In this document: piece after piece, positions 9 to 64,000 of the stretch
Numbering within the stretch: position 1 is the first letter of the stretch
How the letters are laid out: the number at the start of each line of letters is the position of its first letter
Origin: Clostridiales bacterium
GTDB lineage: Bacteria > Bacillota > Peptococcia > DRI-13 > UBA5745
Assembly: GCA_038562165.1 (NCBI GenBank)
Contig: JBCFAO010000018.1
Coordinates: 764-64,763, forward strand
Direction: 5' to 3'
Length of the DNA stretch: 64,000 bases
Position numbers and translations under genes: made by a program
The notes under the pieces: generated by a model
The model's database searches: none
What the model was told of the DNA's origin: nothing
What the model saw: only the letters and a program-made list of their open reading frames with translations

Positions 9-854
9 GTGAACGCAGTGGCGGTTAACGAAAAATACTTGCCGGATGTTGAGGCAATACTATCCCACAGGCACGATAATGGGGCGGACTTTTGGACAAC
101 CCCGGATAAACGTTTGCTGAAGGGCTCTCCCTTTTCCGCCTACAATAGCGCCCTTATGCTTTTGGAATTGGGAATGGAACCGGCAGACCCCACACTTACG
201 GAAGTAGCTGAGCTGTTTTTCAGCGCCTGGCGGGAGGACGGCCGTTTTAAGCTATACCCCCAAGGCGGCATTTTACCCTGTCATACGGCTCTTGCCGCCT
301 CTTTGCTTTGCCAAATGGGATATACTCAAGATGAACGAATCCAAAAAACCCTTCGCCAGCTGCTGGATATTCAATACCATGACGGCGGTTTACGGTGCAA
401 CAAGTTTTCTTTTGGCCGGGGCCCTGAGACGGAATATTCCAATCCCGGCCCTACCCTCACCGCCTTAAACGCTTTTCGCTTCAGCGATTATCTTAATCAA
501 GAGCCTGCTTTGGACAAGGCGGTGGATTTTTTACTGGAGCATTGGGTTGTCAGAAAGCCCCTAGGCCCCTGCCATTATGGTATTGGCACCCTTTTTATGC
601 AGGTGGAGTACCCTTTCGGCAATTATAATCTATTCCAGTATGTTTATATATTGTCTTTCTACAACTATGCCAAGAAAGACAATCGATTCAGAGAGGCCTT
701 TGAAGCCCTGCAAGCAAAACTGGCAGACGAACAAGTTGTGGTTGAACGGGTTGTCCCCAAATTAGCAAAGCTGTCCTTCTGCAAGAAAGGCCAGCCCAGT
801 CAGCTTGCCACAATGCGTTATCAAGAGATTCTTGCCAACCTTGAGCATAGCTGA
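9..854 (+). CDS. prenyltransferase/terpene-cyclase-like (alpha-alpha toroid repeat) protein
   Basis: 281-aa ORF with recurring Asp-Gly-Gly/aromatic motifs (HDNGADFW, REDGRFK, YHDGGLRC) typical of prenyltransferase/squalene-cyclase repeats. GTG at 9 or 18, with GAGGTGA at 6-12. The frame is open to the window edge, so the true start could lie upstream. Confidence 0.5.
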   Translation: MNAVAVNEKYLPDVEAILSHRHDNGADFWTTPDKRLLKGSPFSAYNSALMLLELGMEPADPTLTEVAELFFSAWREDGRFKLYPQGGILPCHTALAASLLCQMGYTQDERIQKTLRQLLDIQYHDGGLRCNKFSFGRGPETEYSNPGPTLTALNAFRFSDYLNQEPALDKAVDFLLEHWVVRKPLGPCHYGIGTLFMQVEYPFGNYNLFQYVYILSFYNYAKKDNRFREAFEALQAKLADEQVVVERVVPKLAKLSFCKKGQPSQLATMRYQEILANLEHS

Positions 855-856
855 AA

Positions 857-1611
857 TGTACAAAATTTGAGGTTTTGGGGCTGTTGTTCCTTTGGAATAG
901 TAGATTCAAACTATGCCTAACACTAAGTATAGGGAGAAATCAGTGTTCAGTAGCGTAAAACTTGAAATTTTGTGCAGTTAGCCAAGGCAAATACACATAA
1001 AAACTCATTTTTTGTACACACGGCCATAACCTGGGAAGCGACTTTTTCAGTGCCCTCTAACAAACCTGCATTTTTGCTCATTTTCCGAGGAGGCAGGGTC
1101 ACTCTGCCTTGAATCTGTCTAAAAATCTCCCAGAAGAGAAGGGCTGCCACAAATTCGGCAGCCCTTTTTACCGGCGGTTTACGATGGTTCGCGACGGTTT
1201 GCAGCGGTTCGCGACGTGGGAGTCCGCAGCTCGCCGTCCGGGACTGTGCCGGTTACAGATGAGCGGTTGCTTAATAACAGCCAGCTCTGTCAGTGGCATA
1301 TTGCCGGCCTGGCGTGGGGTCACCGCTCGGCCGCTCCTTTGGAAAACGTGCAAAATTGCAGGTTTGGGGGTGTTCACAGTAGCTAACTGAGCAAAAATGC
1401 AGGTTTAAAGTGTCTGAGCACCGTCTTTGTGTTGTGGTCAGACGATTTTTTACTGTATCTAGTGTCGCGAAAAATGAATATACCCTATTGCAATGGGACA
1501 ACGCACTTTAAACTTGAAATTTTGCACAAAAACAGCGGGACAGCAGATACAAAGTTGAAATTTTGCTCAGTTAGCTTCAGCAAACGACGACAAACCTGCA
1601 ATTTTGAACAG
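857..1611. repeat. Repeat locus A: 8 copies of the CAAAAWTKCARGTTTGT-core motif in two opposed-array units
   Basis: Forward copies at 857-877, 1348-1366 and 1382-1407. Reverse copies at 957-982, 1060-1080, 1508-1528, 1549-1575 and 1590-1611. Several copies carry the extension GCTAACTG. Spacing within arrays is 40-43 bp. Confidence 0.9.
1141..1170 (+). terminator. intrinsic terminator-like hairpin
   Basis: GGGCTGCC-acaaattc-GGCAGCCC followed by TTTTTA. It lies between the two repeat units of locus A. Confidence 0.55.
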
Positions 1612-1736
1612 TGCCGCGGCCCCTACGTTAATCATTTTTTCAGCAAGAGACTTTCTTTAATCAGCAATTCGGCAATTTGTACGGCATTAGTAGCTGCACC
1701 TTTACGCAGTTGTCTATTTTGTAATATTATATCACT

Positions 1737-20703: not shown

Positions 20704-21096
20704 TCAGGGAATTGAGATGGCACTACAATAATTAGACAGAGTAACGCCACCGGCAGTAGCCGTTACATAAGCCCGATAATATCCAGAAGCTAGACCAGAT
20801 TTTGCAGTAGAAAGAGTATGTTCACTGCCGGCGCCATATTGATTACTATAGGTTTTGCTATCAATATTCTCATAAACACCGGAACGGACTTCCCGTTGTA
20901 AAGTTATTGTAACGTTGTAGTAGCCTAGCTGGCTAAGAACCGGAGTTCCATAGCAAGTGATATAGCTAGTACCCTTATTAATGCCAGCTCCCACTCCTGT
21001 AAGCGTTGCCGCCGCCATAGCTACCGTGGGCAAAATCGAAACCATCATCATAACAACAGCTAAAATCAGGGCAATACGTTTTCTACTCTTTTTCAT
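20704..21096 (-). CDS. small secreted hypothetical protein
   Basis: 130 aa with signal peptide MKKSRKRIALILAVVMMMVSILPTVAMAA and a GGAGG RBS. AT-rich relative to its neighbours. Confidence 0.55.
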   Translation of the reverse strand: MKKSRKRIALILAVVMMMVSILPTVAMAAATLTGVGAGINKGTSYITCYGTPVLSQLGYYNVTITLQREVRSGVYENIDSKTYSNQYGAGSEHTLSTAKSGLASGYYRAYVTATAGGVTLSNYCSAISIP

Positions 21097-21133
21097 TCTC
21101 TTTCCTCCTAAAAAATTGTTTGCGACAGTGAAT

Positions 21134-21160
21134 TGTCGAATCTTAGACCGTCATGTCGAA
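21134..21160. promoter_or_regulatory. two Spo0A-box-like sites (TGTCGAA) upstream of the small secreted protein gene
   Basis: Perfect TGTCGAA at 21134-21140 and 21154-21160, 20 bp apart and 38-64 bp from the ATG at 21096. A related GCGACA lies at 21122-21127. Confidence 0.35.
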
Positions 21161-21363
21161 AAAGCGTTTCCTTTCCCCGAAAGATATCGATAGTCCTGAG
21201 GGGTGAAACCTTTTTTTACTTAGATGGTCTAAATATTTTTTAGGATATTTTTAGTATACTTATGGATGTTTGGTTATACAAATCCTGGGATAAGTATTAG
21301 TAGCTCAACTTTCCTAAATTTCGCTATACACATGCCACTCCACACTACCGTGGGCCTCCCGTC

Positions 21364-21465
21364 TTGCTCAAAAATGCAGGTTTGTCAACCGTCGGCTTGG
21401 GAAATGTGCAAAATTGCAAGTTTGTAGTGTCCACTCACAGCGTTTTGCTCAAAATTTCAAGTTTA
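21364..21465. repeat. Repeat locus B, forward array (3 copies, 40-41 bp period)
   Basis: Copies at 21364-21385, 21405-21425 and 21445-21465: TTGCTCAAAAATGCAGGTTTGT / TGTGCAAAATTGCAAGTTTGT / TTGCTCAAAATTTCAAGTTTA. Confidence 0.9.
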
Positions 21466-21546
21466 GAGGGCGTATTCCGGCCTGAAAATAGGGTTTTCCT
21501 CCTATTTATCGGCTAAATCTGTTCCAAAGCGGTGATTTAGGCATGA

Positions 21547-21650
21547 ACAAACCTGCATTTTTGCACAGTTAGTTCAAGCTAACAACGACAAACCTGCATT
21601 TTTGCTCAGTTAGCCCCGGCGAACAACGACAAACCTGCATTTTTGAGCAG
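21547..21650. repeat. Repeat locus B, reverse array (3 copies, 41 bp period)
   Basis: Copies at 21547-21572, 21588-21614 and 21629-21650: ACAAACCTGCATTTTTGC(A/T)CAGTTAG(C). The linker AACAACG is also repeated. Confidence 0.9.
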
Positions 21651-21658
21651 ATCACAGT

Positions 21659-21771
21659 CTCCCACTACTGCCGCCTCACACTACTGCCGCCTTACACTAC
21701 TGCCGCCTTACACTACTGACGCCTTCCACTACTGACGCCTTCCACTACTGACGCCTTCCACTGCAGCCCCC
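21659..21771. repeat. 16-bp tandem repeat (about 7 units, TTMCACTACTGMCGCC)
   Basis: Units start at 21661, 21676, 21692, 21708, 21724, 21740 and 21756. The unit length is not a multiple of 3. Two sub-variants (CTGCCGCC, then CTGACGCC) occur in blocks. Confidence 0.9.
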
Positions 21772-21877
21772 CACTGCCTCCACTACCCACCCCTGACGAT
21801 TATAATTTTTCGGGCAGCCAGGATATTAAGCAAAATAACTGGCAGCTTTCGTTAATTACAGCAGAATACAATGACCC

Positions 21878-21909
21878 GGCAAAAAGGCAAAAAGGCGAAA
21901 AGGCAAAAA
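21878..21909. repeat. 8-bp A-tract tandem repeat (GGCRAAAA x4)
   Basis: GGCAAAAA GGCAAAAA GGCGAAAA GGCAAAAA. Confidence 0.85.
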
Positions 21910-21986
21910 GGTGCTGTCTCAATTGGCATCAGTCTCAGTCTGTCGTACTGCCCGCTGCCTTAGTGATTCTATCGCGGGTCCTGGCT

Positions 21987-22144
21987 GTGCAAAAATCGAG
22001 GTTGTGCACTGATTTTGTAGGCCTTCAAGCTAAACGACCGTAATTTTTTCGGTTTCACTCCAATTTTTCCTTGAATTTGCGAATTTTTTCGGTTACGCCT
22101 ATATTATCTAGTGCTAACTTCTTGCACAACCTCGATTTTTGCAC
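21987..22144. repeat. perfect 22-bp inverted-repeat pair (variant of the family motif) enclosing 114 bp
   Basis: GTGCAAAAATCGAGGTTGTGCA at 21987-22008 and its exact reverse complement at 22123-22144. The interior holds the direct repeat AATTTTTTCGGTT twice (about 22041 and 22082). Confidence 0.9.
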
Positions 22145-22150
22145 ACTTGA

Positions 22151-22213
22151 GGGGGTTACTGCCGGGGGCGGGGGCGGTGCCGGGGCGGTGCCGGGGGCGG
22201 TGCCGGGGCGGGT
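22151..22213 (+). other. G-run tandem repeat (GCCGGGGCGGT-like x4), potential G-quadruplex on the plus strand
   Basis: GGGGGttactgccGGGGGcGGGGGcGGtgccGGGGcGGtgccGGGGGcGGtgccGGGGcGGG. Confidence 0.6.
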
Positions 22214-22250
22214 CAGCGTGGTCAGCATCGTGCGGGCGAAGAGAAAACAA

Positions 22251-22305
22251 AGGAAGGGCTGTCTCGAATTGGTTTTTGAAAAACCAATTCGAGACAGCCC
22301 TTCCT
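22251..22305 (-). terminator. 55-bp perfect palindrome (27-bp arms), probable terminator of the DUF6530-like gene
   Basis: AGGAAGGGCTGTCTCGAATTGGTTTTT-g-AAAAACCAATTCGAGACAGCCCTTCCT. On the minus strand it is followed by TTGTTTTCTCTT. A partial third copy (GGTGCTGTCTCAATTGG) lies at about 21909-21927. Confidence 0.6.
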
Positions 22306-22333
22306 ATTAAACACGACCATTATATCCCTGAGA

Positions 22334-22849
22334 TCAATATCCCATTTCTTTCAGCAGTCTGGACAGCACCGCCATCCGCTCCCCCAGCAGCTCCCCGTTA
22401 TTGCTGAGAGCTTGGGAAAATAGCTTAATATCCTCGTCAATCAGCGGATTATCCTGACATACCGCCAAAGTCATAGCATCTCCCTGAAGCCCCATTCTAT
22501 CGATCAGCGGCTTCCCTTCATCATAAAACTTAGGGTAGCGGTAAGCTGTCTCCCGAAAATATTGGCTGGTGCGGCAGATCATAATCGCCAGGTCCAGCAC
22601 CCGGTGCAGAGGCAGCTCTTCCGACTGGCGGGACCATTTCTCTCCGGTGTAGCGCCAAACCTTGGCGGAAATATCCACCTTGCCCCGGTCATTCCATTGG
22701 GCAAGCCCCAGGGAAAGCCCTTTAGCATCAGTGTTGAAAGCCGCTCTGCCGTCCACCCGCTCATAATCTTCCGCTACAATTACCGGTTTGTGCTTTAGGG
22801 ACACCGGTATTTTTTTGCCGCTTTCTTTTTTGTTTTGATCATCTGTCAT
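22334..22849 (-). CDS. conserved hypothetical protein (DUF6530-like by recollection)
   Basis: 171 aa counted from Met 20 of the 190-aa ORF. Motifs: HKPVIVAEDYERVDGRAAFNTDAKGLSLGLAQWNDRGKVDISAKVWRYTGEKWSRQSEELPLHRVLDL. Same strand as the GIY-YIG-like gene and 62 bp downstream of it. Confidence 0.55.
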   Translation of the reverse strand: MTDDQNKKESGKKIPVSLKHKPVIVAEDYERVDGRAAFNTDAKGLSLGLAQWNDRGKVDISAKVWRYTGEKWSRQSEELPLHRVLDLAIMICRTSQYFRETAYRYPKFYDEGKPLIDRMGLQGDAMTLAVCQDNPLIDEDIKLFSQALSNNGELLGERMAVLSRLLKEMGY

Positions 22850-22910
22850 CAATGAACCAACCTCTCTTTTCTTTCTCAGCATCTGTCCTGCCGGCCTTTT
22901 TCTCAAAAGC

Positions 22911-23510: not shown

Positions 23511-24104
23511 ATGGAATTTTTGGCAGCAGTAAAAAACAGACGGTCGATTTATGGGTTAGGCAAGGACATCAACGTAAGCGAGGAACGAATCAAGGAAATT
23601 GTTAAAGAGGCTGTATTGCACACCCCTTCGGCTTTTAATATGCAGAGCGCCCGGGTTCTGCTTTTATTCGGAGAGCATCACCATAAGCTATGGAGTATCG
23701 TAAAGGAAACGTTGCGTAAAATCGTTAAACCCGAAGCCTTCTCCAAGACGGAAGAAAAGATTAATACTTTTGATGCAGCATACGGTTCATTGCTTTATTT
23801 CGACGATACTGCAGCAGTGGCTGCATTCCAGGAGCAATTCCCCAGATATAAAGAGAACTTTGCTATGTGGGCGCAGCACGCCAATGGCATGCTCCAGCAC
23901 GTGATTTGGACAGCCCTGGAGGCAGAAGGCTTAGGAGTTAATATACAGCACTATAACCCCATCATCGACGATGAAGTAAAAGCCACCTGGGGCGTTCCAG
24001 CCTCCTGGCAACTGATTGCCCAAATGCCCTTTGGTTCCATCACCGAGGCCGCCGGTGATAAAGAATTTGCTCCCATCGAAGAGAGGTTAAAGATTTATCC
24101 CTGA
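23511..24104 (+). CDS. nitroreductase family protein
   Basis: 197 aa with the N-terminal KNRRSIY..L motif and a TPSAFNMQSARV core. GAGGAGG RBS. Confidence 0.85.
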   Translation: MEFLAAVKNRRSIYGLGKDINVSEERIKEIVKEAVLHTPSAFNMQSARVLLLFGEHHHKLWSIVKETLRKIVKPEAFSKTEEKINTFDAAYGSLLYFDDTAAVAAFQEQFPRYKENFAMWAQHANGMLQHVIWTALEAEGLGVNIQHYNPIIDDEVKATWGVPASWQLIAQMPFGSITEAAGDKEFAPIEERLKIYP

Positions 24105-24135
24105 TCACTGGCTATTTAATTTCATAAATGCAATC

Positions 24136-24173
24136 AAAAAGGTACGTGTCCTTGATCCGGCACGTACCTTTTT
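24136..24173. terminator. bidirectional intrinsic terminator
   Basis: AAAAAGGTACGTG-12 nt-CACGTACCTTTTT, between the convergent nitroreductase and SH3 genes. Confidence 0.8.
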
Positions 24174-24370
24174 ATATTATCAAATAGACTATATTCAAGC
24201 TTCTCTGAATGTCTCTCAGACCACAGCGGTTGTCTTGCATGACAATCAAAGGGCCTTATCAAAAATGGCAGGTTATTCTTTATAAATAAAGAGTAACCTG
24301 CCAAAATTAACGCAATATGCTGTTATTCTGCAGACCGGTTTCTATTTGACCTGTCTCTTGCTTGCGCTCC

Positions 24371-25009
24371 TTATTTCACTTTAACCAGATAGCCGGCTAC
24401 CCAGCCTACGGTACCGTCGCTGAGCTGTACCTGGTACCAGTCTTTATCCACTTTGGTAATGGTGAAGCTGTCGCTGGGGCTCAATTTTTTCTTGATGGTA
24501 GAAGAGGTGGAAGCGGATTCTCTCAAGTTGACCACTTCGGCAGTAACGGCTCCCGTCTTGCCGATATTGGCCTGGGAGACTGCTGTACCGCTGCTGCTGC
24601 CGGTACCTGTGCCGGTACCTGTGCCGCTGCCCGTAGAGCCCGTGCCGGAAGTGCCGGAGCCGGAACCACCGGTGCCTGTCCCTGTACCCGTTCCGGTACC
24701 ACCGGTACCAGTACCCGTGCCCGTCCCTGTGCCGCCGGTACCGGTGGTGCCGACAACGCCGCCGTTAAGCAGGGACAACTCATTTTCCAGGCTTTGAATC
24801 TTGGCTTCCAGGCTGCTGATTCTGGTATCCATGGCTTGCACCTTCTGCTCAATAGAGCCGTCGGCATAGCTTTTGGTCACTAAAGGATCCTCTTTGGAAC
24901 CGGGCTCCTTCGTATCTCCGCCCAAAACGCCGGTACCGTAGAGAAAACCCACGCCTACAGAAACAATTATCCCTAAAAGCACAAACACTTTCCAATCTAT
25001 TCTTCTCAT
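24371..25009 (-). CDS. membrane-anchored SH3b domain protein with Gly/Thr-repeat linker
   Basis: N-terminal TM ([18 protein letters not shown]), a coiled segment, a (GT)n/(GTG)n linker of about 60 aa, and a C-terminal SH3_3-like ..[32 protein letters not shown]. Confidence 0.75.
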
Positions 25010-34470: not shown

Positions 34471-34572
34471 AATCTCAAGAGAGTTTGCTTTGCTTCTAGA
34501 GACTCTTTTGAGAGTCTGCTATGGTTCTAAAGACTCTCAAGAGAGTCTGCTATGGCTCTAGAGACTCTCTTG
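34471..34572. repeat. about 3.5 tandem copies of a 30-31 bp unit, each containing an 18-bp palindrome
   Basis: Unit: CTAGAGACTCTYWWGAGAGTCTGCTATGGYT. Palindromes AGACTCT-tttg-AGAGTCT (34500-34517) and AGACTCTC-aa-GAGAGTCT (34531-34548), with degenerate copies at 34471-34497 and 34561-34572. Overlaps the last codons of dusB and lies 40-140 bp upstream of the hypothetical gene. Confidence 0.9.
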
Positions 34573-35557
34573 GATAGCTGCGCAAAATAGCTTCTGCCTC
34601 CGCCAAAGTACGGCAATGAAAGAGCTTCTCTTTTAATGGAGCTGTCCGGGGCAGGCCTTTGAGATACCAGGCCAGATGCTTGCGCATTTCCGGTATGCCC
34701 TTAGCCTCGCCCTTACGCTCCACCAGACGGCGGCAATGCTCCAAAGCCATGGCAATTTTCTCTTCCCTGCCGGGCTCCCGGCCTTCGTCTGCCGTCAGCA
34801 AAAACTTAGCTATACGGCCCGGCAGCCAGGGATTGCCTAAAGCCCCCCGCCCTACCATAACACCGTCGCAGCCTGTCTCCTCCAGCAGCCGCCGGGCATC
34901 CTTAGGCCCCCAAACGTCGCCGTTGCCGATGACCGGCACCTGCACAGCCTCCTTAACCCGCCGAATCTGCTGCCAATCAGCCCGGCCGCTGTAATACTGC
35001 TCCCTGGTCCGGCCATGGACGGCGATCATAGCCGCTCCCGCCGCCTCCATCCGCAAGGCAAAATCCGGCACCACCAGATGACCGCTATCCATGCCCAAGC
35101 GGATTTTCACCGTTACCGGAATGGCCACCGCCGCCGCCATAGCTTCTACAATCCGGGCTGCCAGCCCCGGATTTTCCAGCAAAGCGGAACCCTCCCCATT
35201 TTTCACTACTTTGGGAACGGGGCAGCCCATATTGACATCCACAAAAGCAGCGCCTTGAGCCGCTGCCGCCTCAGCCGCTGCCGCCATTACTTCCGGCTCG
35301 GAACCAAAAATCTGTACCGCCACCGGCCCCGGCTCGCCACTGATGTCCAAAAGGGCCTGGGTTTTAACATTATGATAAGACAGCGCTTTCGCACTGATCA
35401 TTTCCGTATAAAGCAAAACCGGCCCTTGCTCCCTGGCCAATTCCCGAAAGGTTTTATCGGTGATTCCGGCCATAGGAGCTAAGGCCACAGGATTACTTTT
35501 TAAGATAGCGGCAATATCCGCCGGACTTTTTTCTTTTTCTCGATTACCGCTCAGCAA
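34550..35557 (-). CDS. dusB: tRNA dihydrouridine synthase DusB
   Basis: APMAGITDKTFR, VDVNMGCP, HGRTR motifs. Confidence 0.9.
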   Translation of the reverse strand: MLSGNREKEKSPADIAAILKSNPVALAPMAGITDKTFRELAREQGPVLLYTEMISAKALSYHNVKTQALLDISGEPGPVAVQIFGSEPEVMAAAAEAAAAQGAAFVDVNMGCPVPKVVKNGEGSALLENPGLAARIVEAMAAAVAIPVTVKIRLGMDSGHLVVPDFALRMEAAGAAMIAVHGRTREQYYSGRADWQQIRRVKEAVQVPVIGNGDVWGPKDARRLLEETGCDGVMVGRGALGNPWLPGRIAKFLLTADEGREPGREEKIAMALEHCRRLVERKGEAKGIPEMRKHLAWYLKGLPRTAPLKEKLFHCRTLAEAEAILRSYPRESLEP

Positions 35558-50727: not shown

Positions 50728-51885
50728 TTACTTGCCTGACCGGCCAAGCTGCAGGCCCAGTGCAACGGCCCGCAGCAGCCGCTGGGCGGCGGCACAGACC
50801 ATATCCTCAGCCTCGGCCATAGCCTGATCCAGAGTCATGGGAGAGCAGACCGCCGCCTCGGCGGCCGCAATTCCGGCGGCATAGACAGCTTCAAGATCCC
50901 GGGCCAGAGAACCGGCCAGAGCCACCACGGGCACACCAAGCTCTCCGGCTTTGCGGGCAATGCCCGCCGGGGTTTTGCCAAAGGCCGACTGCCCATCCAG
51001 CCTGCCCTCCCCGGTAATGACCAAGTCCGTCTGACGAAGTTTTTCTTCAAAGCCGGCGGCGGCAAGCAGAAAATCGATACCGGGATAGAGCTTGGCTTTT
51101 GTAAAAGCCATCAAGCCAAAACCCAGACCGCCGGCGGCGCCGGCGCCGGGTACTTCAGCCAAGTCCTGGCCCAGACAGTCTTTAACGAGAGCCGCCAGGC
51201 GGGCCAGGCCGGAGTCCAGCAAAATGATTTCTTCCTGGCCTGCTCCTTTCTGGGATCCGTAAACTTGAGCCGCTCCCTGCCTGCCGCAAAGGGGATTGGT
51301 CACATCGCAGAGCACTATAATTTCCGCTGCCAGAATTCTGGAATCCAAAGAGGATATGTCTATCCGGCTGATCCGGGCTAAATCCCGGCCCCCGGCCCCC
51401 GGCTCCAGCATCTGCTCCTGGGCATCAAAAAAACGGATGCCTAAAGCCTGAGCCATTCCCAGGCCGCCGTCATTGGTAGCCGAACCGCCGATGCCCACAT
51501 ATAGCCTCCGGCAGCCTTGATCCAGGGCCGCCAGCATTAGCTCTCCGGTGCCGTAGGTGCTGGCGGCCATGATGTCCAATTGATCCGCGGACAGCAGAGT
51601 AAGACCGGAAGCGGAGGCCATATCGATGACAGCGGCGCCGTCAGGCAAAACACCGTAAGCCGCCTCCACTTTTTTGCCCAAAGGGCCGCTGACTACAGCC
51701 CGGCACAGCCTGCCTTCCAAGGCCTGGGTTAAAGTCCGGGCCGTGCCTTCCCCGCCGTCGGCAATAGGCAGGCAAACAATTTCGGCGGCGGGAAATACCC
51801 GCAGCGCCCCCCGGGCTATGGCTGCCGCAGCTTCGCTGCTGCTGAGGCTGCCTTTAAAAGAATCGCAAGCAATCATGATACGCAT
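50728..51885 (-). CDS. glxK: glycerate kinase
   Basis: MRIMIACDSFKGSLSS.., IADGGEGT, GIGGSATNDGG. I chose the start at Met 49 of the long ORF. The upstream 144 nt of that ORF is the 11-bp repeat tract. Confidence 0.9.
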   Translation of the reverse strand: MRIMIACDSFKGSLSSSEAAAAIARGALRVFPAAEIVCLPIADGGEGTARTLTQALEGRLCRAVVSGPLGKKVEAAYGVLPDGAAVIDMASASGLTLLSADQLDIMAASTYGTGELMLAALDQGCRRLYVGIGGSATNDGGLGMAQALGIRFFDAQEQMLEPGAGGRDLARISRIDISSLDSRILAAEIIVLCDVTNPLCGRQGAAQVYGSQKGAGQEEIILLDSGLARLAALVKDCLGQDLAEVPGAGAAGGLGFGLMAFTKAKLYPGIDFLLAAAGFEEKLRQTDLVITGEGRLDGQSAFGKTPAGIARKAGELGVPVVALAGSLARDLEAVYAAGIAAAEAAVCSPMTLDQAMAEAEDMVCAAAQRLLRAVALGLQLGRSGK

Positions 51886-51895
51886 AGGCCTTTTA

Positions 51896-51960
51896 TCTCC
51901 TGTTTCCTGTCTTTTTCCTGTCTGTTTCCTGTCTGTTTCCTGTCTGTTTCCTATCTTTAC
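51896..51960 (-). repeat. 11-bp tandem repeat (about 6 units, mRNA sense GAAACAGACAG) in the glxK 5' leader
   Basis: mRNA sense: GAUAG GAAACAGACAG x3, GAAAAAGACAG, GAAACAGGAG, AUAAAAGGCCU, AUG. The last unit merges into the Shine-Dalgarno. Confidence 0.9.
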
Positions 51961-52058
51961 CCTTTTTTCCTCATCCTGCATCCTTAGGATACCAGAGTCA
52001 ATCTTTATTGTTAACTGCTTTCTTCGCAAAACCTATGGCAAAGCAAAGCCTTCTCAGT

Positions 52059-55192: not shown

Positions 55193-55507
55193 TTAGACTT
55201 CCTCTGAAACATTACGTCTGCTGTAAACAATTCTGCGAACTTCCATAACTTCGCCTATTACCACATAAAAAACGGTATAATTTCCGACATAAATACGGTA
55301 GTATGGGTATTGGCGTTCTTTTGCGGAATGGTATTGCTCAAATGCTTCCGCGCAAGAAAGCCGTTCTCGAATTGCTTGCTGTACATCGTCCACAAGCGCT
55401 TCCGCTGCGGTTGGATTCTTAAGCCGTCCCGTAATATAGTCCACGATGTCGTTCAAATCCTTCTCAAATAGAGGAAGAAACCGCAGTTTATAATCCTTTT
55501 TGTTCAT
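55193..55507 (-). CDS. type II toxin-antitoxin system RelE/ParE family toxin
   Basis: 104 aa: ..YRIYVGNYTVFYVVIGEVMEVRRIVYSRRN. Overlaps the antitoxin gene by 20 bp. Confidence 0.85.
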   Translation of the reverse strand: MNKKDYKLRFLPLFEKDLNDIVDYITGRLKNPTAAEALVDDVQQAIRERLSCAEAFEQYHSAKERQYPYYRIYVGNYTVFYVVIGEVMEVRRIVYSRRNVSEEV

Positions 55508-55757: not shown

Positions 55758-56007
55758 TTTGCACAACCTCCTTCCATTGAAATTAAAAGTACCTTGGCGC
55801 TATTTTATCATAATTACGCCATTTTGCCAATGGATTTTCGTGAAGTTCAAAAGATCATAATTCTTTGCTTAATATCTAAATTCCCCGCAAAATTAAACCA
55901 TACATCAAGAAAAGCCGCCAATGATCAGATTTGTCATGCCAAGGTTGACTCGGAATTCGCTTTTGTCCGGTCTGCAGGCTTTGTCCTCTGGTGGTGCGGA
56001 CGTTTTC

Positions 56008-56241
56008 TGTGCAAAAATGCAGGTTTGTATCCAGTAAGGGCGCCAGTTGAGCAAAAATGCAGGTTTGTAGACACCCCTTAGAGTTATGGCAGCTCAAAAA
56101 ATAAGTAGAAATGTATGCCTTGGATGTATTTAGTACCCTGGCAGAAATGAATTCACTACCAAACTGTAAAAAATGTTTAAGCTTTCAAACATTCCTGCTG
56201 ATAAGGGTCTCTAGACGAAGACAAACTTGCAATTTTGCACA
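56008..56241. repeat. Repeat locus C: two forward copies facing one reverse copy of the family motif
   Basis: TGTGCAAAAATGCAGGTTTGT (56008-56028), TGAGCAAAAATGCAGGTTTGT (56048-56068) and ACAAACTTGCAATTTTGCACA (56221-56241). The centre is 152 bp of unique sequence. Confidence 0.9.
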
Positions 56242-56335
56242 GAGGGGGGACCTCAATAAGCCAACCACCCCCTGCCGGTGGGGGCATGCCCATTTCTTTC
56301 CATTAGGTTAATAGACAATCATAAAAAAAGTTAGC

Positions 56336-56369
56336 AAAAGAGAGCCTGCCTCTAGAAGGGAAGCTCTCT
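56336..56369 (-). terminator. terminator after glpX
   Basis: AGAGAGC-17 nt-GCTCTCT followed on the minus strand by TTTTGCTAACTTTTTTT. Confidence 0.55.
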
Positions 56370-56412
56370 ATTATTTAAATTAAATCCTGATATTCTCTTG
56401 GGAATCAGTACC

Positions 56413-57432
56413 TTAATTGCCGCAGCCGCAACCGCTCAAGGGCTCCAGAACCTTCTTCAACCGCTCCGGCTTCCGGTCCAGGCGGTGCTGGGTTTCCAGG
56501 AAGCGGATAGTGCCGGTCTCTCCCCGCATGACCAGCGTGTGCGTGGTGGCAAAATCACCATAGAAGCGGACGCCTTTCAGCAGCTCGCCGTCGGTAACGC
56601 CGCTGGCGGAGAAAATCACGTCGTCGGTCTTCACCAGGTCATCTAAGGTCAAAAGCCGCTCTGCATTGCCGCCCAGCATCTGGCTGGCCCGGTAACGCTC
56701 CTCGTCATTTTCCGGCCATAAACGGCCCATAAACTCGCCGCCCAAAGAGCGCAAAGCCGCAGCAGCCAAAACCCCTTCCGGAGCGCCGCCGATGCCTACC
56801 ATCATATCGATACCGCTGCCTTCGATACCGGTAGCCACTGCCGGTGAAACATCGCCGTCGGTGATCAGCTTAATCCTGGCGCCGCTGGCCCGCAGCTCAT
56901 CGATAATCCTTTGGTGCCGGGGCCGGTCCAAAACCACCACCGTCACATCCCAAGGTTCTTTATCCAAAGCGGCCGCCACTGCCTTGACATTTTCCGTAAC
57001 AGACCAGTCCAAATGTATCTTGCCTTTACATTTGGGGCCGGCGGCAATCTTATCCATATACATATCGGGGGCGTGAAGCAGACAGCCTTTAGGCGCTATG
57101 GCCAAAGTTGCAATGGCTCCCGTCATGCCTTTGGCTACCAGATTAGTGCCTTCCAAGGGATCTACGGCAATATCCACCTCAAAACCGCAGCCCATGCCTA
57201 CCTTCTCGCCAATATACAGCATAGGGGCTTCGTCCATCTCGCCTTCCCCGATGACTACCGTGCCGTTGACGCTAACGGAGTCAAACATGGCCCGCATAGC
57301 CTCCACTGCGGCGCCGTCGGCGGCGTTTTTATCTCCTTTGCCCCACCAGCGGGCGGCAGCCAGGGCCGCTACTTCCGTAACCCGGGCCATCTCCAGGGAA
57401 AGCTCCCTGCCCATTGATTCATGATGAACCAT
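56413..57432 (-). CDS. glpX: class II fructose-1,6-bisphosphatase
   Basis: LSLEMARVTEVAALAAARWWGKGDKNAADGAAV.., DPLEGT, GGAPEG motifs. Confidence 0.95.
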   Translation of the reverse strand: MVHHESMGRELSLEMARVTEVAALAAARWWGKGDKNAADGAAVEAMRAMFDSVSVNGTVVIGEGEMDEAPMLYIGEKVGMGCGFEVDIAVDPLEGTNLVAKGMTGAIATLAIAPKGCLLHAPDMYMDKIAAGPKCKGKIHLDWSVTENVKAVAAALDKEPWDVTVVVLDRPRHQRIIDELRASGARIKLITDGDVSPAVATGIEGSGIDMMVGIGGAPEGVLAAAALRSLGGEFMGRLWPENDEERYRASQMLGGNAERLLTLDDLVKTDDVIFSASGVTDGELLKGVRFYGDFATTHTLVMRGETGTIRFLETQHRLDRKPERLKKVLEPLSGCGCGN

Positions 57433-57476
57433 AGCTAATCCTTCCTTTCAAGGGAAATCCATTATGCCGGCTGCCC

Positions 57477-58331
57477 TTAAGCTTTGCCGTTTGAGCCAAA
57501 AATTTGAATTTTTTCCCGGATTACCTCCACCATAGCCTGGCGGGCAGGCTTCAGGAGCTTGCGGGGATCGATTTCCCCCGGTTGTTTTGCCATCTCATCC
57601 CGGAGGGTATTGCAGAAGGCTTCCCGAATATTCGTATCGATATTAATTTTGCGGACGCCCAGGGAAATAGCGGTCCTCAGATCATCGGCAGGCACGCCGG
57701 AGGAACCGTGGAGAACGATGGGTACGGAAACCAAGCCTCTGATTTTCTCCAGACGGGCAAAATCCAGCTTGGGAGGCAGCTTGTAAGGGCCATGGGCGGT
57801 GCCGATGGCTACGGCCAGAGAATCCACACCGGTCTGCTCCACAAAGAGCTTGGCTTCCTGCGGGTCGGTCATCATAGCATCCCGTTCACTGACATTGATA
57901 TGGTCTTCAATACCTCCCAGCTTGCCCAGTTCGGCTTCTGTAGAAACCCGGGCGGCTCTGGCGATTTCCACAACTTTTTTTGTCATGGCCACATTTTCTT
58001 CAAAAGGCTTAGCGGAGCCGTCATACATCACACTGGTAAAACCGCCGGTAATGCACTGAATGACCTGCTCCATATCGGTACCGTGGTCCAGATGCAAAGC
58101 AATGGGAATGGAGGCGTTTTTTGCCGCTGCGTTGCACAGAGCCACTACGTAATCCAACCCGGCATACTTAATGGCTCCCTGACTGGCTTGAATGATCACC
58201 GGTGATTTTTCCTTTTCTGCCGCTTCCACAATGGCCTGGACAATCTCCATGTTGTTGCAGTTGAAGGCTCCTACGCCGTAGCCGCCTTTTTCTGCTGCGT
58301 CTAAAAGGGTTTTTACTGTGACTAATGCCAT
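57477..58331 (-). CDS. fba: class II fructose-bisphosphate aldolase
   Basis: GYGVGAFNCNNME, LHLDHG, VLHGSSG motifs. Confidence 0.95.
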   Translation of the reverse strand: MALVTVKTLLDAAEKGGYGVGAFNCNNMEIVQAIVEAAEKEKSPVIIQASQGAIKYAGLDYVVALCNAAAKNASIPIALHLDHGTDMEQVIQCITGGFTSVMYDGSAKPFEENVAMTKKVVEIARAARVSTEAELGKLGGIEDHINVSERDAMMTDPQEAKLFVEQTGVDSLAVAIGTAHGPYKLPPKLDFARLEKIRGLVSVPIVLHGSSGVPADDLRTAISLGVRKINIDTNIREAFCNTLRDEMAKQPGEIDPRKLLKPARQAMVEVIREKIQIFGSNGKA

Positions 58332-58385
58332 TTTAACCTGCCTCCTTTATATCAATTGATCCGCTCAGGGCGGGGTACGTTTATG

Positions 58386-58414
58386 GTAATAACGCCTCAG
58401 TAGAAAAGTTTCGA
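58386..58414 (-). promoter_or_regulatory. promoter module upstream of fba-glpX (TCGAAA-N17-TATTAC)
   Basis: Minus strand reads aTCGAAActtttctactgaggcgtTATTACcat, about 80 percent identical over 30 nt to the module at 6810-6838. Confidence 0.45.
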
Positions 58415-58437
58415 TTGCAGAAATTTTTCTTACCTGT

Positions 58438-60057
58438 TTATTTTTGCCGGTCTAAGGCCGCGCCGATGAAATCCCTGAATAAAGGATGGGCCCGGTTAGG
58501 CCGGGACTTGAACTCCGGCTGGAAAGAGCAAGCCACAAACCAGGGATGGTCAGGCAATTCTACGACCTCCACAAATTCGCCGTCGGAGGAGAGTCCCGCA
58601 AGGGCAAGACCGCCCTCAATAAAGGTCTGCCGATAAGCGTTGTTCATCTCCAGGCGGTGGCGGTGCCGCTCCCTGATCTCCTCACTGCCGTAAGCGGCGG
58701 CGGCTTTGGAGCCCCTTTTCAAGATACAGCCATAGCTGCCGATACGCAGGGTACCGTTTTTGCCGAAGCTGGAAGGATCGGACTTGTCATCTTTGCGGGC
58801 ATAATGGACCACTTTATCCCGGCTTTCGGGATGGGCTTCTTCCGAGCCGGCGTCCATGGACAATACATGGCGGCCATATTCCACCAAAGCTAGCTGCATA
58901 CCTAAACTTATGCCGAAGTAAGGGATTTTATTTTCCCTGGCATACTGAATAGCTAATATCTTACCCTCGATGCCCCGGGTACCGAAACCGCTGGGCACCA
59001 GTATGCCGTCGTAGCCTTCCAAAATCTCCTTGGCTTTTTCTTTGCTGGTAATATTGCCGGAGAAAATCAGGGAATGCTGGACTTCCGCCTCATGATGAAT
59101 ACCGGCGTGGCGCAAAGCTTCGCAAACGCTGAGGTAGGAGTCAGGCAGCTCCGTATATTTGCCTACTATGGCAATTTTGACTTTGTGCTTAGGATTTTTT
59201 GCGCGGCGTACCATGGCTTCCCATTCGTCCATCATGGCAGGACCGCATTCCAGGCGGAAATAATCCACTACGATATCGTCCAGACCCTCGGAACGCAAAA
59301 GCAGCGGTATCTCGTCCAGATTGTCCACATCGGGAGTCTGAATCACCGCTTCTTTGTCGATATCGCAGAATAAGGCAATCTTAGCCTCCGTATCCTTTGA
59401 TAAAGGCCGCTCGGAACGGCAAACGATGGCGTTGGGCTGGATGCCGATACTCCGCAGTTCCTTGACGCTGTGCTGAGTGGGCTTAGTCTTGGCCTCGGAG
59501 GAAGCGGAAAGATAAGGCACCAGCGTCACATGGATATACATAATATTTTCACTGCCCATATCCCGTTTCATCTGGCGAATGGCTTCAATAATCGGCAGGG
59601 ACTCAATATCGCCTACCGTACCTCCTATTTCTGTGATCACCACATCGGGATAGAGCCTGTCCGCCACTGTCCGGATAGAGTTTTTAATCTCATTGGTAAT
59701 GTGAGGAATAACCTGAACGGTTCCTCCCAGGTATTTGCCTTCCCGCTCATTGCGGATGACCCGGTCATAGACAGAGCCCATGGTAGTGCTGCAGCAGCCC
59801 GGCAATGTGCTGTCGGTGAAGCGCTCATAGTGGCCCAAGTCCAGGTCCGTCTCAGCGCCGTCATCAGTGACGAAAACCTCGCCGTGCTGAGTAGGACTCA
59901 TATTGGTAGGATCTACATTGATGTAAGGATCAAACTTCTGATTGACCACCTTCAGTCCCCGGTTTTTCAATAAGCGCCCTAAGGAGGCCGCGGTAATTCC
60001 TTTCCCCAATGAGGAAACTACTCCTCCGGTGATGAATACGTATTTTGTCGATGACAT
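58438..60057 (-). CDS. pyrG: CTP synthase
   Basis: [17 protein letters not shown], a C-terminal glutamine amidotransferase domain (GICLGMQ-like SLGMQLA), 539 aa. Confidence 0.97.
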
Positions 60058-60095
60058 TACCTTTTCCCTCCAAAATATATTAAAAATATATTATA

Positions 60096-61781
60096 CTACA
60101 TTCTTTCCGGGGCGCTGACGCCAATTAATTGCAGGACATTGCGAAGCACGATTCTGGTGGCATCGGATAAAAGCAGCCGGGCCTGGCGCAAAGGCATATC
60201 TTCTACCAGGCAGCGGCATTCTGTATAAAAGCTGTGATATAAAGCGGCCAAATCCATAGCATAGCGGGGCAGGCGGTGAGGCTCCCGGTCAATGGCAGCC
60301 TGAATGATCTCCTCCGGCAGGTCCGCTAATTTGCGGATCAGCTCAAGCTCCGCCGGGTGGATCAGGCGGCTGAGGTCTGCCTGGGACCATGGCTGATTGC
60401 TGCCGCCGGCGCCTTCCGAAGCCATTTTGAGCAGGCTGTGGATTCTGGCGTGAGCATATTGAACATAGTAAACGGGGTTTTCCGAGGACTGGGATTTTGC
60501 CAGATTTAAATCAAAGTCCATCTGGCTGTCGGCGCTGCGCATGACGAAGAAGAAACGGGCCGCATCCCGGCCGACCTCCTCCATCAGCTCATCCAAGGTG
60601 ATGTATTGGCCGCTGCGCTTGGACATTCTGACGAGCTCATCGCCCCGCAGCAGGCGGACCAATTGCATCAGGATCACTTCCAGGTCGTCGGGGTTGTAGC
60701 CTAAAGCGCCCATGGCCCCCTTCATCCTGGCTACGTGGCCGTGATGGTCGGCGCCCCAGATATCGATAAGGGTCTGGAAGCCTCGTTCAAATTTGTCCCG
60801 GTGGTAAGCGATATCCCCCGCAAAATAAGTAGGTACGCCGCTGGCCCGAACCATAACCTCGTCTTTTTCGTCGCCGAAAGCCGTGGCCTTTAGCCAAAGA
60901 GCGCCGTCCTTCTCACAAAGGAGATTCTTCTCCCCTAAAATATTGACGGTCTCCTGGATTTTGCCTTTGTCATGGAGGCTTTGCTCACTGAACCAGACAT
61001 CGTAATGGACGCCAAAATTCTCCAGGCTCCTGCGGATGGCGCTGAGCTTTTCCTGGAGGCCGGCCTGGATCATAAATTCCCGGCGCAGGCTGGATTCTAT
61101 ATGCAGGAAGCGGTCTCCCTCCCTCTCCAGAATCAGCTTGGCCGTCTCGGTAATATCCTCACCCTGATAGCCATCCTCGGGGAAAACAACCTTCTCCCCC
61201 AAAAGCTCCAGATATCTGGCTTCCAAGGACTTGCCGAAGTTTTCAATCTGGTTGCCGGCGTCATTAATGTAATACTCCCGGCTGACGAAAAAACCGGCGG
61301 CGCTGAGCACATTGCCCAGGCTATCGCCTAAAGCCGCGCCCCTGGCATTGCCCATATGAAGCAGGCCTGTGGGATTGGCGCTGACAAACTCAATCTGGAC
61401 TTTGCGGCCGCCGCCGAAATCGCTGCTGCCGTAAGCTTGATCCTCAGCCAAAATCGCTGTCAGCACCGGATGGAAATAGCCGGGAGTCAGATAAAAATTG
61501 AGAAAACCGGGACCGGCAATCTCCAGCTTGTCCAGCCAGTCCAATTCTTTAGCAAAATGGTCCAGGATAATCTGGGCAATCACCCGGGGGGCTTTGCCGG
61601 CTGCTTTTGCCATGATCATGGCAATATTAACAGCAAAATCCCCGTGGTTTTTATCACGGGGGGCATCTATCGCAAAAGCCGGCGGCTCTCCGGCAGGCAG
61701 TTGGCCGGCCTTTTCCGCCCTGCTCAGGGCTGCCAAAACCTCCTGCCGGATCAATTCTTTAATTTCTTTCACTCTATTCAT
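60096..61781 (-). CDS. argS: arginine--tRNA ligase
   Basis: ANPTGLLHMGNARG (HIGH region) and MSKRSG (KMSKS). 561 aa. Confidence 0.97.
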   Translation of the reverse strand: MNRVKEIKELIRQEVLAALSRAEKAGQLPAGEPPAFAIDAPRDKNHGDFAVNIAMIMAKAAGKAPRVIAQIILDHFAKELDWLDKLEIAGPGFLNFYLTPGYFHPVLTAILAEDQAYGSSDFGGGRKVQIEFVSANPTGLLHMGNARGAALGDSLGNVLSAAGFFVSREYYINDAGNQIENFGKSLEARYLELLGEKVVFPEDGYQGEDITETAKLILEREGDRFLHIESSLRREFMIQAGLQEKLSAIRRSLENFGVHYDVWFSEQSLHDKGKIQETVNILGEKNLLCEKDGALWLKATAFGDEKDEVMVRASGVPTYFAGDIAYHRDKFERGFQTLIDIWGADHHGHVARMKGAMGALGYNPDDLEVILMQLVRLLRGDELVRMSKRSGQYITLDELMEEVGRDAARFFFVMRSADSQMDFDLNLAKSQSSENPVYYVQYAHARIHSLLKMASEGAGGSNQPWSQADLSRLIHPAELELIRKLADLPEEIIQAAIDREPHRLPRYAMDLAALYHSFYTECRCLVEDMPLRQARLLLSDATRIVLRNVLQLIGVSAPERM

Positions 61782-61857
61782 AATACTTCCTCCATCATCA
61801 TGCTTTTATTATAGCTAAGTGGTAACGGGCCTGTCAACCGACAGGCCCGGTTTTCTG

Positions 61858-63498: not shown

Positions 63499-63518
63499 CT
63501 TTATACCCTTCCCTTCCG

Positions 63519-64000
63519 TCATTTGGCAAACACATGGTTGCCGATTCGGGCGATAATAGGACGGGACCATATCCATTTAGAAGTAGCCGTAACGGGGTTC
63601 CAATAATAGATGGCTCCGTTGCTGGGATCCCAGCCGCCTAAGGCTGCCTTGGCTGCTTTGACCGCCGATTCCGTGGGCTCCTGGTAATATTGGCCGTCTT
63701 TTACGGCGTCAAAAGCGCCGGGCTCAAAAATTACACCGTAAACTGAATTAGGGAAGTTGGGATGCTTGCAGCGGTTAATGATTACTGCCCCAACCGCCAC
63801 CTGGCCTATATAAGGTTCTCCCCGGGCTTCACCGCTGATCACTTTGGCCAGAACTGTTGTATCTTTGCTGCTGGCCGTGCCTACGCCTCTGGTTACTACC
63901 GTCAGGCTTTGTTCTTGCTCCTGATTTTCAGCCTGCAGCCACAGCCCCACTGCAAATAAGCTGGCAAAGGCAAAAAGAAAGCCCGCCAGCCATAGCGCTC
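63519..64000 (-). CDS. sleB: spore cortex-lytic cell wall hydrolase SleB (5' end outside window)
   Basis: GEARGEPYIGQVAVGAVIINR..FPNSVYGVIFEPGAFDAV..WYW hydrolase_2 motifs. The reading frame stays open through 63998 (..ALWLAGFLFAFASLFAV..), so the start lies beyond the window. Confidence 0.8.
   Translation of the reverse strand, partial: ALWLAGFLFAFASLFAVGLWLQAENQEQEQSLTVVTRGVGTASSKDTTVLAKVISGEARGEPYIGQVAVGAVIINRCKHPNFPNSVYGVIFEPGAFDAVKDGQYYQEPTESAVKAAKAALGGWDPSNGAIYYWNPVTATSKWIWSRPIIARIGNHVFAK

Follow-up and report, generated by a model that had tools for sequence, protein, structure and literature searches.

In enterobacteria, repetitive extragenic palindromic (REP) sequences and bacterial interspersed mosaic elements (BIMEs) form extragenic mosaics in which a short conserved motif recurs in alternating orientation between variable linkers, and these mosaics are hot spots of rearrangement. 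The BOX, RUP, and SPRITE families of pneumococci are modular interspersed repeats that cluster together and differ in module number between strains (PMC3049150). Arrayed inverted sites of approximately 20 bp at both ends are the hallmark of the transposons Tn7, Tn5090, Tn5053, and Tn552 (PMC8649781). Here we analyzed a noncoding island that can be compared with each of these systems. It occupies positions 21097 to 22333 of a 64,000-nucleotide stretch of a Clostridiales bacterium (GenBank assembly GCA_038562165.1, contig JBCFAO010000018.1), referred to below as the window, and fills the gap between the start of a gene for a 130-amino-acid (aa) secreted protein and the stop of a DUF6530 gene. 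Both genes lie on the minus strand, and in the direction of transcription the island follows the DUF6530 gene and precedes the small gene.

With a probability of about 0.7, we read the island as a hypervariable intergenic spacer, in which lineage-specific, non-autonomous interspersed repeats with tandem arrays at the element edges are bracketed by a leader and a terminator. The elements are scattered and confined to intergenic DNA, they vary modularly in unit number, and conservation is limited to their cores. We filed the family with the non-autonomous interspersed repeats, as MITE/BOX-like (MITE, miniature inverted-repeat transposable element).

Facing arrays built on a common core

A preliminary description of the island, made from the sequence alone, had listed seven repeat features, and all of them were recovered where it had placed them, in the sequence itself, by a repeat finder, and by Tandem Repeats Finder (TRF). 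Its inverted-repeat pair is indeed perfect but measures 23 bp instead of the reported 22 bp. In agreement with that description, there is no credible open reading frame (ORF) in the island; the longest does not exceed 98 aa, and three island ORFs that were tested (53, 79, and 98 aa) had no Pfam match. The exceptional repeat density that it pointed out is also real, as tandem repeats cover 24.2% of the island versus 1.47% of the other 62.8 kb, and the island ranks first among the 1237-bp stretches of the window for tandem-repeat coverage. What did not hold was the notion of six unrelated repeat types. Dispersed families account for both the 41-bp arrays and the 23-bp inverted-repeat pair, whose cores are related, and the three short tandem arrays sit at the edges of the two elements concerned, termed A-type and B-type. 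The interior of the island is composed as follows.

21365 to 21649, no strand assigned: A-type facing-array element, with three inward-facing core units per side around a center of about 78 bp
21365 to 21386, 21405 to 21426, and 21446 to 21467 (the last degenerate), plus strand: A-type units (repeat finder)
21546 to 21567, 21587 to 21608, and 21628 to 21649, minus strand: A-type units (repeat finder)
21661 to 21794, no strand assigned: 16-bp minisatellite CACTACTGMCGCCTTM (TRF score 151-167; repeat finder families D1/D2)
21878 to 21911, no strand assigned: 8-bp repeat GGCRAAAA, 4.2 copies (TRF score 61)
21905 to 21927, no strand assigned: degenerate partial copy of an arm of the palindrome in the last line, AAGGTGCTGTCTCAATTGG against AAGGGCTGTCTCGAATTGG, read from the sequence and containing indels
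21986 to 22145, no strand assigned: B-type element, 160 bp, with terminal inverted repeats TGTGCAAAAATCGAGGTTGTGCA (pair I3, family D11)
22163 to 22211, no strand assigned: G-rich 11/12-bp repeat GCCGGGGGCGGT, 3.5 copies (TRF score 73), abutting the right end of the B-type element
22251 to 22305, minus strand: perfect 27+1+27 palindrome (pair I1; terminator scan)

Both elements are built on a core of approximately 20 bp, ACAAACYTGCAWTTTTGC. In the A-type element (285 bp in total; repeat finder families D3, D5, and D7 and pairs I4-I8), the units recur with a period of 40-41 bp, and the element is bounded by a perfect inverted repeat of 22 bp. Homologues with 75-80% identity are present at at least eight loci of the metagenome-assembled genome (MAG) 'Clostridia bacterium R1-B15.2' (GCA_018436095.1), a close relative of the window organism with 92-96% identity in shared flanks. 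The terminal inverted repeats of the B-type element, perfect over 23 bp (21986-22008 and 22123-22145), are a variant of the core. Inside the element, AATTTTTTCGGTT occurs twice in direct orientation (at 22042 and 22082), and there is a weak promoter-like site. A B-type homologue with 74% identity was found in locus L024 (2350-2513), where the copy likewise adjoins an A-type element and then GC-rich short tandem repeats, and the R1-B15.2 version of the island (locus L101) holds a 2+2 array version of the B-type element.

We compared cores and spacers across the family. In 94 distinct units, the core was more than 90% conserved at most positions, and the 19-22 bp between cores were near random across subfamilies. 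Arm-to-arm complementarity, measured in 40 left/right unit pairs, amounted to 87% in the cores compared to 32% in the spacers. Single strands of both elements fold strongly (z-scores of -7.9 for A-type and -6.9 for B-type), and because the complementarity is concentrated in this way, the folding derives from the repeated cores alone. These data point to a phased site of approximately 20 bp, and not a long hairpin, as the selected feature, and the phased cores are candidate protein-binding sites. A hairpin within the R-type spacer, GTTAGCnnnnGCGAAC, was considered and rejected, as it has only a 3-bp GTT/AAC stem without consistent compensatory changes.

The array-unit 22-mer occurs nine times in the window at up to 3 mismatches, versus 0 expected. 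Looser matching (up to 5 mismatches) gave 14 units in four intergenic clusters, namely, the island and the following members.

851 (approximately) to 1080, no strand assigned: D-type member, with one plus-strand and three minus-strand degenerate units
1347 to 1610, no strand assigned: facing-array element with 2+2 units; R1-B15.2 has a MerR-family gene there instead
55884 to 56310, no strand assigned: C-type member of about 430 bp, with 2+1 core units and extra outer modules (eight-copy alignment)

The outer modules of the C-type consist of 1-3 tandem copies of CTGCAGGTTTTGTCCYCT. More generally, the subfamilies vary in center and spacers, and some of them bear extra outer modules. The D-type is also found inside the R1-B15.2 version of the island, where positions 410-632 match window positions 851-1077 with 85% identity (blast).

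Scanning one genome per species for an exact 17-mer gave at least 96 blocks of 8 kb, at least 25 of them from R1-B15.2, a MAG whose name gave no match in the literature. The other approximately 70 blocks were, among the matches listed, single matches in unrelated phyla, roughly as many as chance alone would yield, by our estimate, for a 17-mer in 596 Gb. Each complete element of R1-B15.2 consists of a run of units in one direction, a gap of roughly 100-180 bp, and a run in the opposite direction, with a period of 40-41 bp. Measured between the inner units, the gap is about 80 or about 150 bp, and the unit combinations include 1+2, 2+2, 2+3, 3+2, and 3+4. All elements of the clade are intergenic; 6 lie between convergent genes, 11 between tandem genes, and 2 between divergent genes. 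In R1-B15.2, at least five contigs begin or end within a few hundred bases of elements, a count taken from loci that are fixed 8-kb blocks in which only some block ends are true contig ends. Logan contigs of the window's own organism end at 21463, within the A-type element, and within the palindrome. In JGI metagenomes, there were no two-unit arrays and a single 22-mer match, which was a C-type copy from the same clade (L109); a scan of IMG/VR gave no arrays of the family. The family, which belongs to an uncultured Clostridia lineage, matched nothing in Rfam, in the phage and plasmid collections, or in the literature.

Other kinds of array were considered as well. A CRISPR array was rejected since the units face each other, the spacers recur between loci (for example, the GTTAGCnnnnGCGAAC consensus), repeat plus spacer amount to only 41 bp, and a Pfam scan found no cas genes among the neighbors. 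Plasmid iterons or centromeres and DNA-uptake sequences were rejected on architecture and dispersal.

Several loci that carry or adjoin core units deserve mention in their own right. At positions 1-100 of locus L023 (gut Clostridia MAG contig CALCEY010000007.1, block 56001-64000), three core-like units, GACAAACCTGCATTTT, lie in tandem with a period of 33-34 bp upstream of a patatin-like gene of an unrelated Clostridia genome; the core may extend beyond this clade, or the resemblance may be due to chance. At the start of the R1-B15.2 contig JAHDMJ010000007.1 (L073, 1-1340), a transposase gene with its own inverted repeat, GGTTATGTCCGTATAATGGTGTAAATT, is inserted into an A-type element, within a spacer. 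From its N-terminal sequence and inverted repeat, we take this transposase to be of the IS256 family. L073 was considered as a half element or parent of the family and rejected, being an IS256-like insertion into an element. Window positions 1166-1713 correspond to positions 5377-7359 of L057, where R1-B15.2 has a MerR/GyrI-like regulator (270 aa) and asd, which encodes aspartate-semialdehyde dehydrogenase (339 aa). Of asd, only the last 89 bp remain in the window, and the MerR gene is replaced by the facing-array element together with a 10/20-bp tandem repeat (1175-1216). Finally, a ParE-family toxin gene (55193-55507; Pfam E = 2e-10) is located about 380 bp from the C-type element.

A rebuilt interior between a conserved leader and a predicted terminator

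Orthologous loci were recovered through the cluster members of the DUF6530 protein, and four of them were compared to the island.

R1-B15.2 (L101): flank identity 93.7%, spacer 1191 bp
L104: flank identity 93.8%, spacer partial
GCA_018434325.1 (L108): flank identity 80.5%, spacer 524 bp
GCA_018436295.1 (L099): flank identity 83.5%, spacer 414 bp

Homology to R1-B15.2 ends near 21300 and resumes at 22318. The interior of R1-B15.2 shows an unrelated order of the same kit, with a D-type element, the 2+2 B-type array, and a solo core unit, and L104 displays a third arrangement. In L108, a diverged 2+1 facing array (GCTCAAAAAAGTGAGTTGTGTG) is found where L099 has about 110 bp of unrelated sequence; the spacer of L099 contains no such elements. 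The site is rebuilt differently in each related genome examined. The preliminary description had raised the question of variable repeat number, and both repeat content and copy number do differ among related strains. In L101 and L104, a core unit of a different subtype occupies the same position beside the same flank, which suggests exchange by recombination at the cores. The preliminary description had also envisaged a recombination or insertion scar or a decayed mobile element, and this stands insofar as the bulk of the island appears to derive from insertion and recombination of non-autonomous repeat elements.

A second variable spot lies at 24105-24370, between a nitroreductase gene (23511-24104) and an SH3-domain gene (24371-25009). 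It is empty in the window, and its counterparts hold a 361-aa gene (L099), an 83-aa ORF (L101), a 444-aa SLFN_AlbA_2/HATPase_c_4 protein (L104), and a DNA methylase with an EcoO109I-type restriction enzyme (L108). This arrangement suggests a small integration hot spot for defense and accessory genes.

The borders of the island behave differently from its interior. Beyond the features already listed by the preliminary description, about 165 bp of the island can be assigned to a conserved promoter/leader of the small gene, and the palindrome can be assigned to the DUF6530 gene as its terminator. The flanking features are as follows.

20704 to 21096, minus strand: small secreted-protein gene, 130 aa with a signal-peptide-like N-terminus (ORF list)
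21097 to 21260, minus strand: predicted promoter/5' leader of the small gene, about 165 bp (four-genome alignment)
22334 to 22906, minus strand: DUF6530 gene (Pfam PF20140, E = 8e-82)

The small secreted protein has no Pfam match, and an exact copy of it occurs on two Logan contigs, each 100% identical to the window. The DUF6530 protein is identical to NCBI MEL7623457.1, annotated as 'Clostridiales bacterium', and the true start of its gene is likely the one that gives 171 aa.

According to the alignment, the leader is the only part of the island that is conserved in all four genomes. By blast, it extends over 21097-21243 when compared to the distant relatives and over 21097-21300 when compared to R1-B15.2. 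It contains a ribosome-binding site (CCTCCT on the plus strand, 21104-21109) and the invariant blocks TTGCGACAGTGAATTGTCGAATCTTAGACC and GAAACCTTTTTTTACTTAGATGGTCTAAATATTTTT, across genomes that are about 80% identical overall. The Spo0A-box-like sites noticed earlier are present here as two exact TGTCGAA motifs (21134-21140 and 21154-21160), 20 bp apart. These boxes are kept in three of the four relatives, and one is changed to TGTCGGA in L108; TGTCGAA is not enriched in the window, with 6 occurrences versus about 4 expected. An inverted repeat, TTAGAtggTCTAA, and a repeated GGTCTAAG motif were also seen within the leader, which had no match in Rfam. The blocks and motifs suggest an operator or an RNA leader, and the region is likely a promoter/leader that is functional for the host.

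Tandem arrays and the terminator palindrome

The 16-bp minisatellite directly abuts the right end of the A-type element. It comprises 6.2 good copies at 21663-21762, with 96% matches, followed by a degenerate tail to about 21794, and it is absent from all 108 loci searched. Short sequences that could have served as its starting point are present in the relatives. Just outside a core unit, L101 has a single GCAG(A)GTAGT seed and L104 a tandem pair; the corresponding place in the window is occupied by at least six 16-bp units, which contain GGCAGTAGTG. The 8-bp repeat has a similar counterpart. At that place, the relatives carry a GGCAAAA/GCCTTTT-like motif, GGCAAAATAG, twice in L101 about 21 bp apart and once in L104, and the motif adjoins the homologous TTTTGCCGGG. 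As to the G-rich repeat, G-runs or CTGCCGGTGGGGG-like sequence trail the terminal units in the C-type alignment and in L024, and the repeat may be an expansion of such an CTGCCGGTGGGGG-like module. Small expansions also adjoin units elsewhere, as illustrated by three copies of CAGTGCCCTTTTT in L010. The tandem arrays would have arisen by replication slippage from short single-copy seeds of this kind.

Other tandem repeats were noted in the window. A 31-bp repeat with an internal palindrome in each of its three copies (GAGAGTCT...AGAGACTCTC) is found at 34479-34572, mostly in the short gap between two minus-strand ORFs, and extends about 20 bp into the end of the one at 34550-35557. An 11-bp repeat (CTGTTTCCTGT, 5.2 copies; 51900-51956) lies inside the long minus-strand ORF 50728-52029, and since 11 is not a multiple of three, changes in its copy number would shift the frame. 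A 15/30-bp repeat (3-4.6 copies; 62615-62706) is located inside another long minus-strand ORF, 61858-63576.

A distance of 28 nt separates the DUF6530 stop from the palindrome, behind which the minus strand reads TTTGTTTTCTCT. With 20 counted pairs, 10 of them G-C, and a T-rich tail, TTTGTTTTCT, on the gene strand, it has the features of an intrinsic terminator, and we identify it, as a prediction from these features, as that of the DUF6530 gene. It is unique in the window, where only its own arms at 22256-22300 match at up to 3 mismatches. Among the loci searched, the arm is present only in L107, a Logan contig from a near-identical strain, which breaks inside the palindrome. At the same place, R1-B15.2 and L104 have a different, ordinary imperfect terminator hairpin. 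The degenerate copy of the arm at 21905-21927 lies about 320 bp from the palindrome, beyond the B-type element and the G-run, and the terminator region would therefore have been duplicated or rebuilt when that segment arrived. Template-switch mutagenesis of quasipalindromes is a known route from imperfect to perfect inverted repeats (PMC7202029). The palindrome may have arisen in this manner, by template-switch correction of an ordinary terminator hairpin; this would explain a flawless 27+27 palindrome where the relatives have an ordinary terminator, although no intermediate form was observed here.

Relation to known elements and alternative readings

In our reading of the island as a hypervariable spacer, the phased cores would be binding sites of a transposase or a recombinase-like protein, and copies would spread and exchange by transposition in trans, by ectopic recombination between cores, or by both. 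Several findings weigh against this reading. No target-site duplications flanked the A-, B-, or C-type copies inspected, and the elements have ill-defined termini, which in some subfamilies bear additional outer modules. The window and about 200 kb of R1-B15.2 blocks contained no autonomous parent with matching ends, and the only transposase encountered, the IS256-like one of L073, has different inverted repeats. Copy numbers from the genome scan, which covered one genome per species, are lower bounds. The relatives differ by replacement and not by clean presence or absence of an insertion; because the differences are of this type, mobility is something that we infer and that is not demonstrated. 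The slippage and template-switch steps rest on resemblance between sequences. Moreover, the B-type element and the G-run lack a second assembly, as short-read contigs end at 21463 and in the palindrome.

Among described repeats, the BOX elements of Streptococcus pneumoniae resemble the family in being small, noncoding, intergenic, and multicopy, with a variable number of modules, and in that repeat families pile up in the same spacers. BOX has one central tandem array, whereas here the modules are found on both arms in opposite orientation. BOX and RUP also make target-site duplications, and none were seen in this family. The likeness is one of architecture, and a sequence relationship is not expected, the host class being different. 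With bacterial MITEs (Correia, Nezha, and RUP), the family shares a length of 160-430 bp, the lack of an ORF, terminal inverted repeats (perfect in the window copies, over 22 bp in the 285-bp A-type element and 23 bp in the 160-bp B-type element), strong single-strand folding, and assembly breaks. It also shares with them many dispersed intergenic copies, in four window clusters and at least 25 R1-B15.2 blocks. Unlike MITEs, which have a single terminal inverted repeat, the arms here carry 2-4 phased subterminal sites; in addition, the A-, B-, and C-type copies inspected show no target-site duplication, no matching autonomous insertion sequence was found in the blocks searched, the termini are not sharp, and orthologous sites show replacements instead of clean presence or absence.

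The facing arrays do have the end architecture of Tn7, Tn5090 (Tn402), Tn5053, and Tn552, with 2-4 sites of approximately 20 bp per end that are in direct orientation within one end and inverted relative to the other, in intergenic DNA, and the outermost L-type units begin with TGT. They differ from that class in carrying no cargo, in the absence of a tnsB/tniA-like gene from any sampled locus, in their regular 40-41 bp spacing, and in being present in high copy, unlike those target-specific transposons. Transposons of the class have a DDE transposase (TnsB/TniA) with an AAA+ partner gene and make a 5-bp duplication; none of 27 window proteins scanned has a transposase domain, and no 5-bp duplication was seen at the flanks inspected. 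Since neither target duplications nor a cognate transposase were found in the copies and loci examined, the family is assigned neither to the MITEs nor to the Tn7 class. REP/BIME sequences are likewise extragenic mosaics of a short motif with variable linkers and hot spots of rearrangement. However, REP units are imperfect palindromes of 20-40 nt, and the core described here is not palindromic and is in tandem within an arm.

A bolder proposal, which we put forward tentatively and as rather unlikely, is that the facing arrays constitute an undescribed class of element. They would be either cargo-less paired ends of a transposition system with arrayed binding sites (Tn7/Tn552/IS21-like) or platforms for a domesticated transposase, and the protein bound at the cores would drive both the spread of the elements and local hyper-recombination and slippage.

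We consider it doubtful that the phased core arrays serve the host as sites for a chromosomal architectural or DNA-binding protein or a regulator, kept for DNA organization or regulation and not mobile. Cores that are kept while the spacers drift, together with a strict 40-41 bp phase equal to about four helical turns, would suit such sites, as would the lack of a target duplication and of a parent transposase and the similar array of 33-34 bp period upstream of the patatin-like gene in L023. However, a locus-specific role is disfavored by the lack of conservation of the elements between close relatives at a given orthologous site, and the family occupies all gene-orientation contexts, convergent more often than divergent, with unit numbers that vary freely.

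The segments flanked by inverted repeats (21387-21627 and 22009-22122) could instead be invertible switches, one or both of which phase-vary the small secreted protein. Both pairs are perfect over 22-23 bp, in keeping with the architecture of an inverton, and lie upstream of the secreted-protein gene, and the B-type element includes the weak promoter-like site. Nevertheless, such a switch is very unlikely, as copies of these inverted-repeat elements are scattered over many unrelated loci, they are missing at this position from the closest relative, which keeps the conserved native promoter, and a Pfam scan of the neighbors found no recombinase gene. The interior of the B-type copy in L024 appears to have the opposite orientation; with symmetric inverted repeats and non-orthologous loci, this was rejected as a sign of inversion.

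It is just as improbable that the island is an artifact of repeat-induced chimeric joins in a metagenome-assembled contig. The independent short-read contigs that end at 21463 and in the palindrome do leave 21463-22264 without a second witness, but 21097-21463 and the sequence from 22264 onward are 100% or nearly identical in independent assemblies. Furthermore, the order of terminator, GGCAAAA, GCAGAGTAGT seed, and core unit is the same in strain L104, a similar A-plus-B adjacency exists in L024, and in our assessment the A- and B-type elements (285 and 160 bp) fit within a typical paired-end insert span.

A structured noncoding RNA, such as a long hairpin precursor, had been suggested for the island, and we now find it hardly credible. 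The strong single-strand folding that would favor it stems from the repeated cores only, the interior is not conserved in relatives with about 94% flank identity, and the terminator precedes the island interior in the direction of transcription. Rfam gave 0 matches at gathering thresholds in the whole window, and in E-value mode 20900-22500 gave only sub-threshold, spurious matches to microRNA hairpins. Least credible of all is an end or scar of a prophage, an integrative and conjugative element, or an integrated plasmid: the DNA is repeat rich and variable between strains, but the flanking gene order is the same in relatives, the window carries the housekeeping genes dnaX, ybaB, recR, glpX, fba, and pyrG and no tRNA, sensitive blastn of the island against 50,697 phage and 72,556 plasmid records gave no match, and neither a transposase nor an integrase domain was found in the 27 window proteins scanned, which include all close neighbors of the elements.

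Reading the island as a hypervariable spacer sets apart about 220 bp that are probably functional, the promoter/leader and the terminator, from approximately 1 kb of fast-turnover filler, and it accounts for the three longest intergenic gaps of the window and for the break points of short-read assemblies. Facing arrays whose strongly conserved cores keep a fixed phase of 40-41 bp imply a dedicated DNA-binding protein. If the arrays do represent a class of arrayed-site elements, intergenic spacers of the host would become programmed hypervariable zones. Were the protein and the mechanism of mobilization to be found, the family would provide a compact model of how arrayed-site ends turn into high-copy miniature elements, and such a model would also show how these elements make intergenic regions hypervariable.

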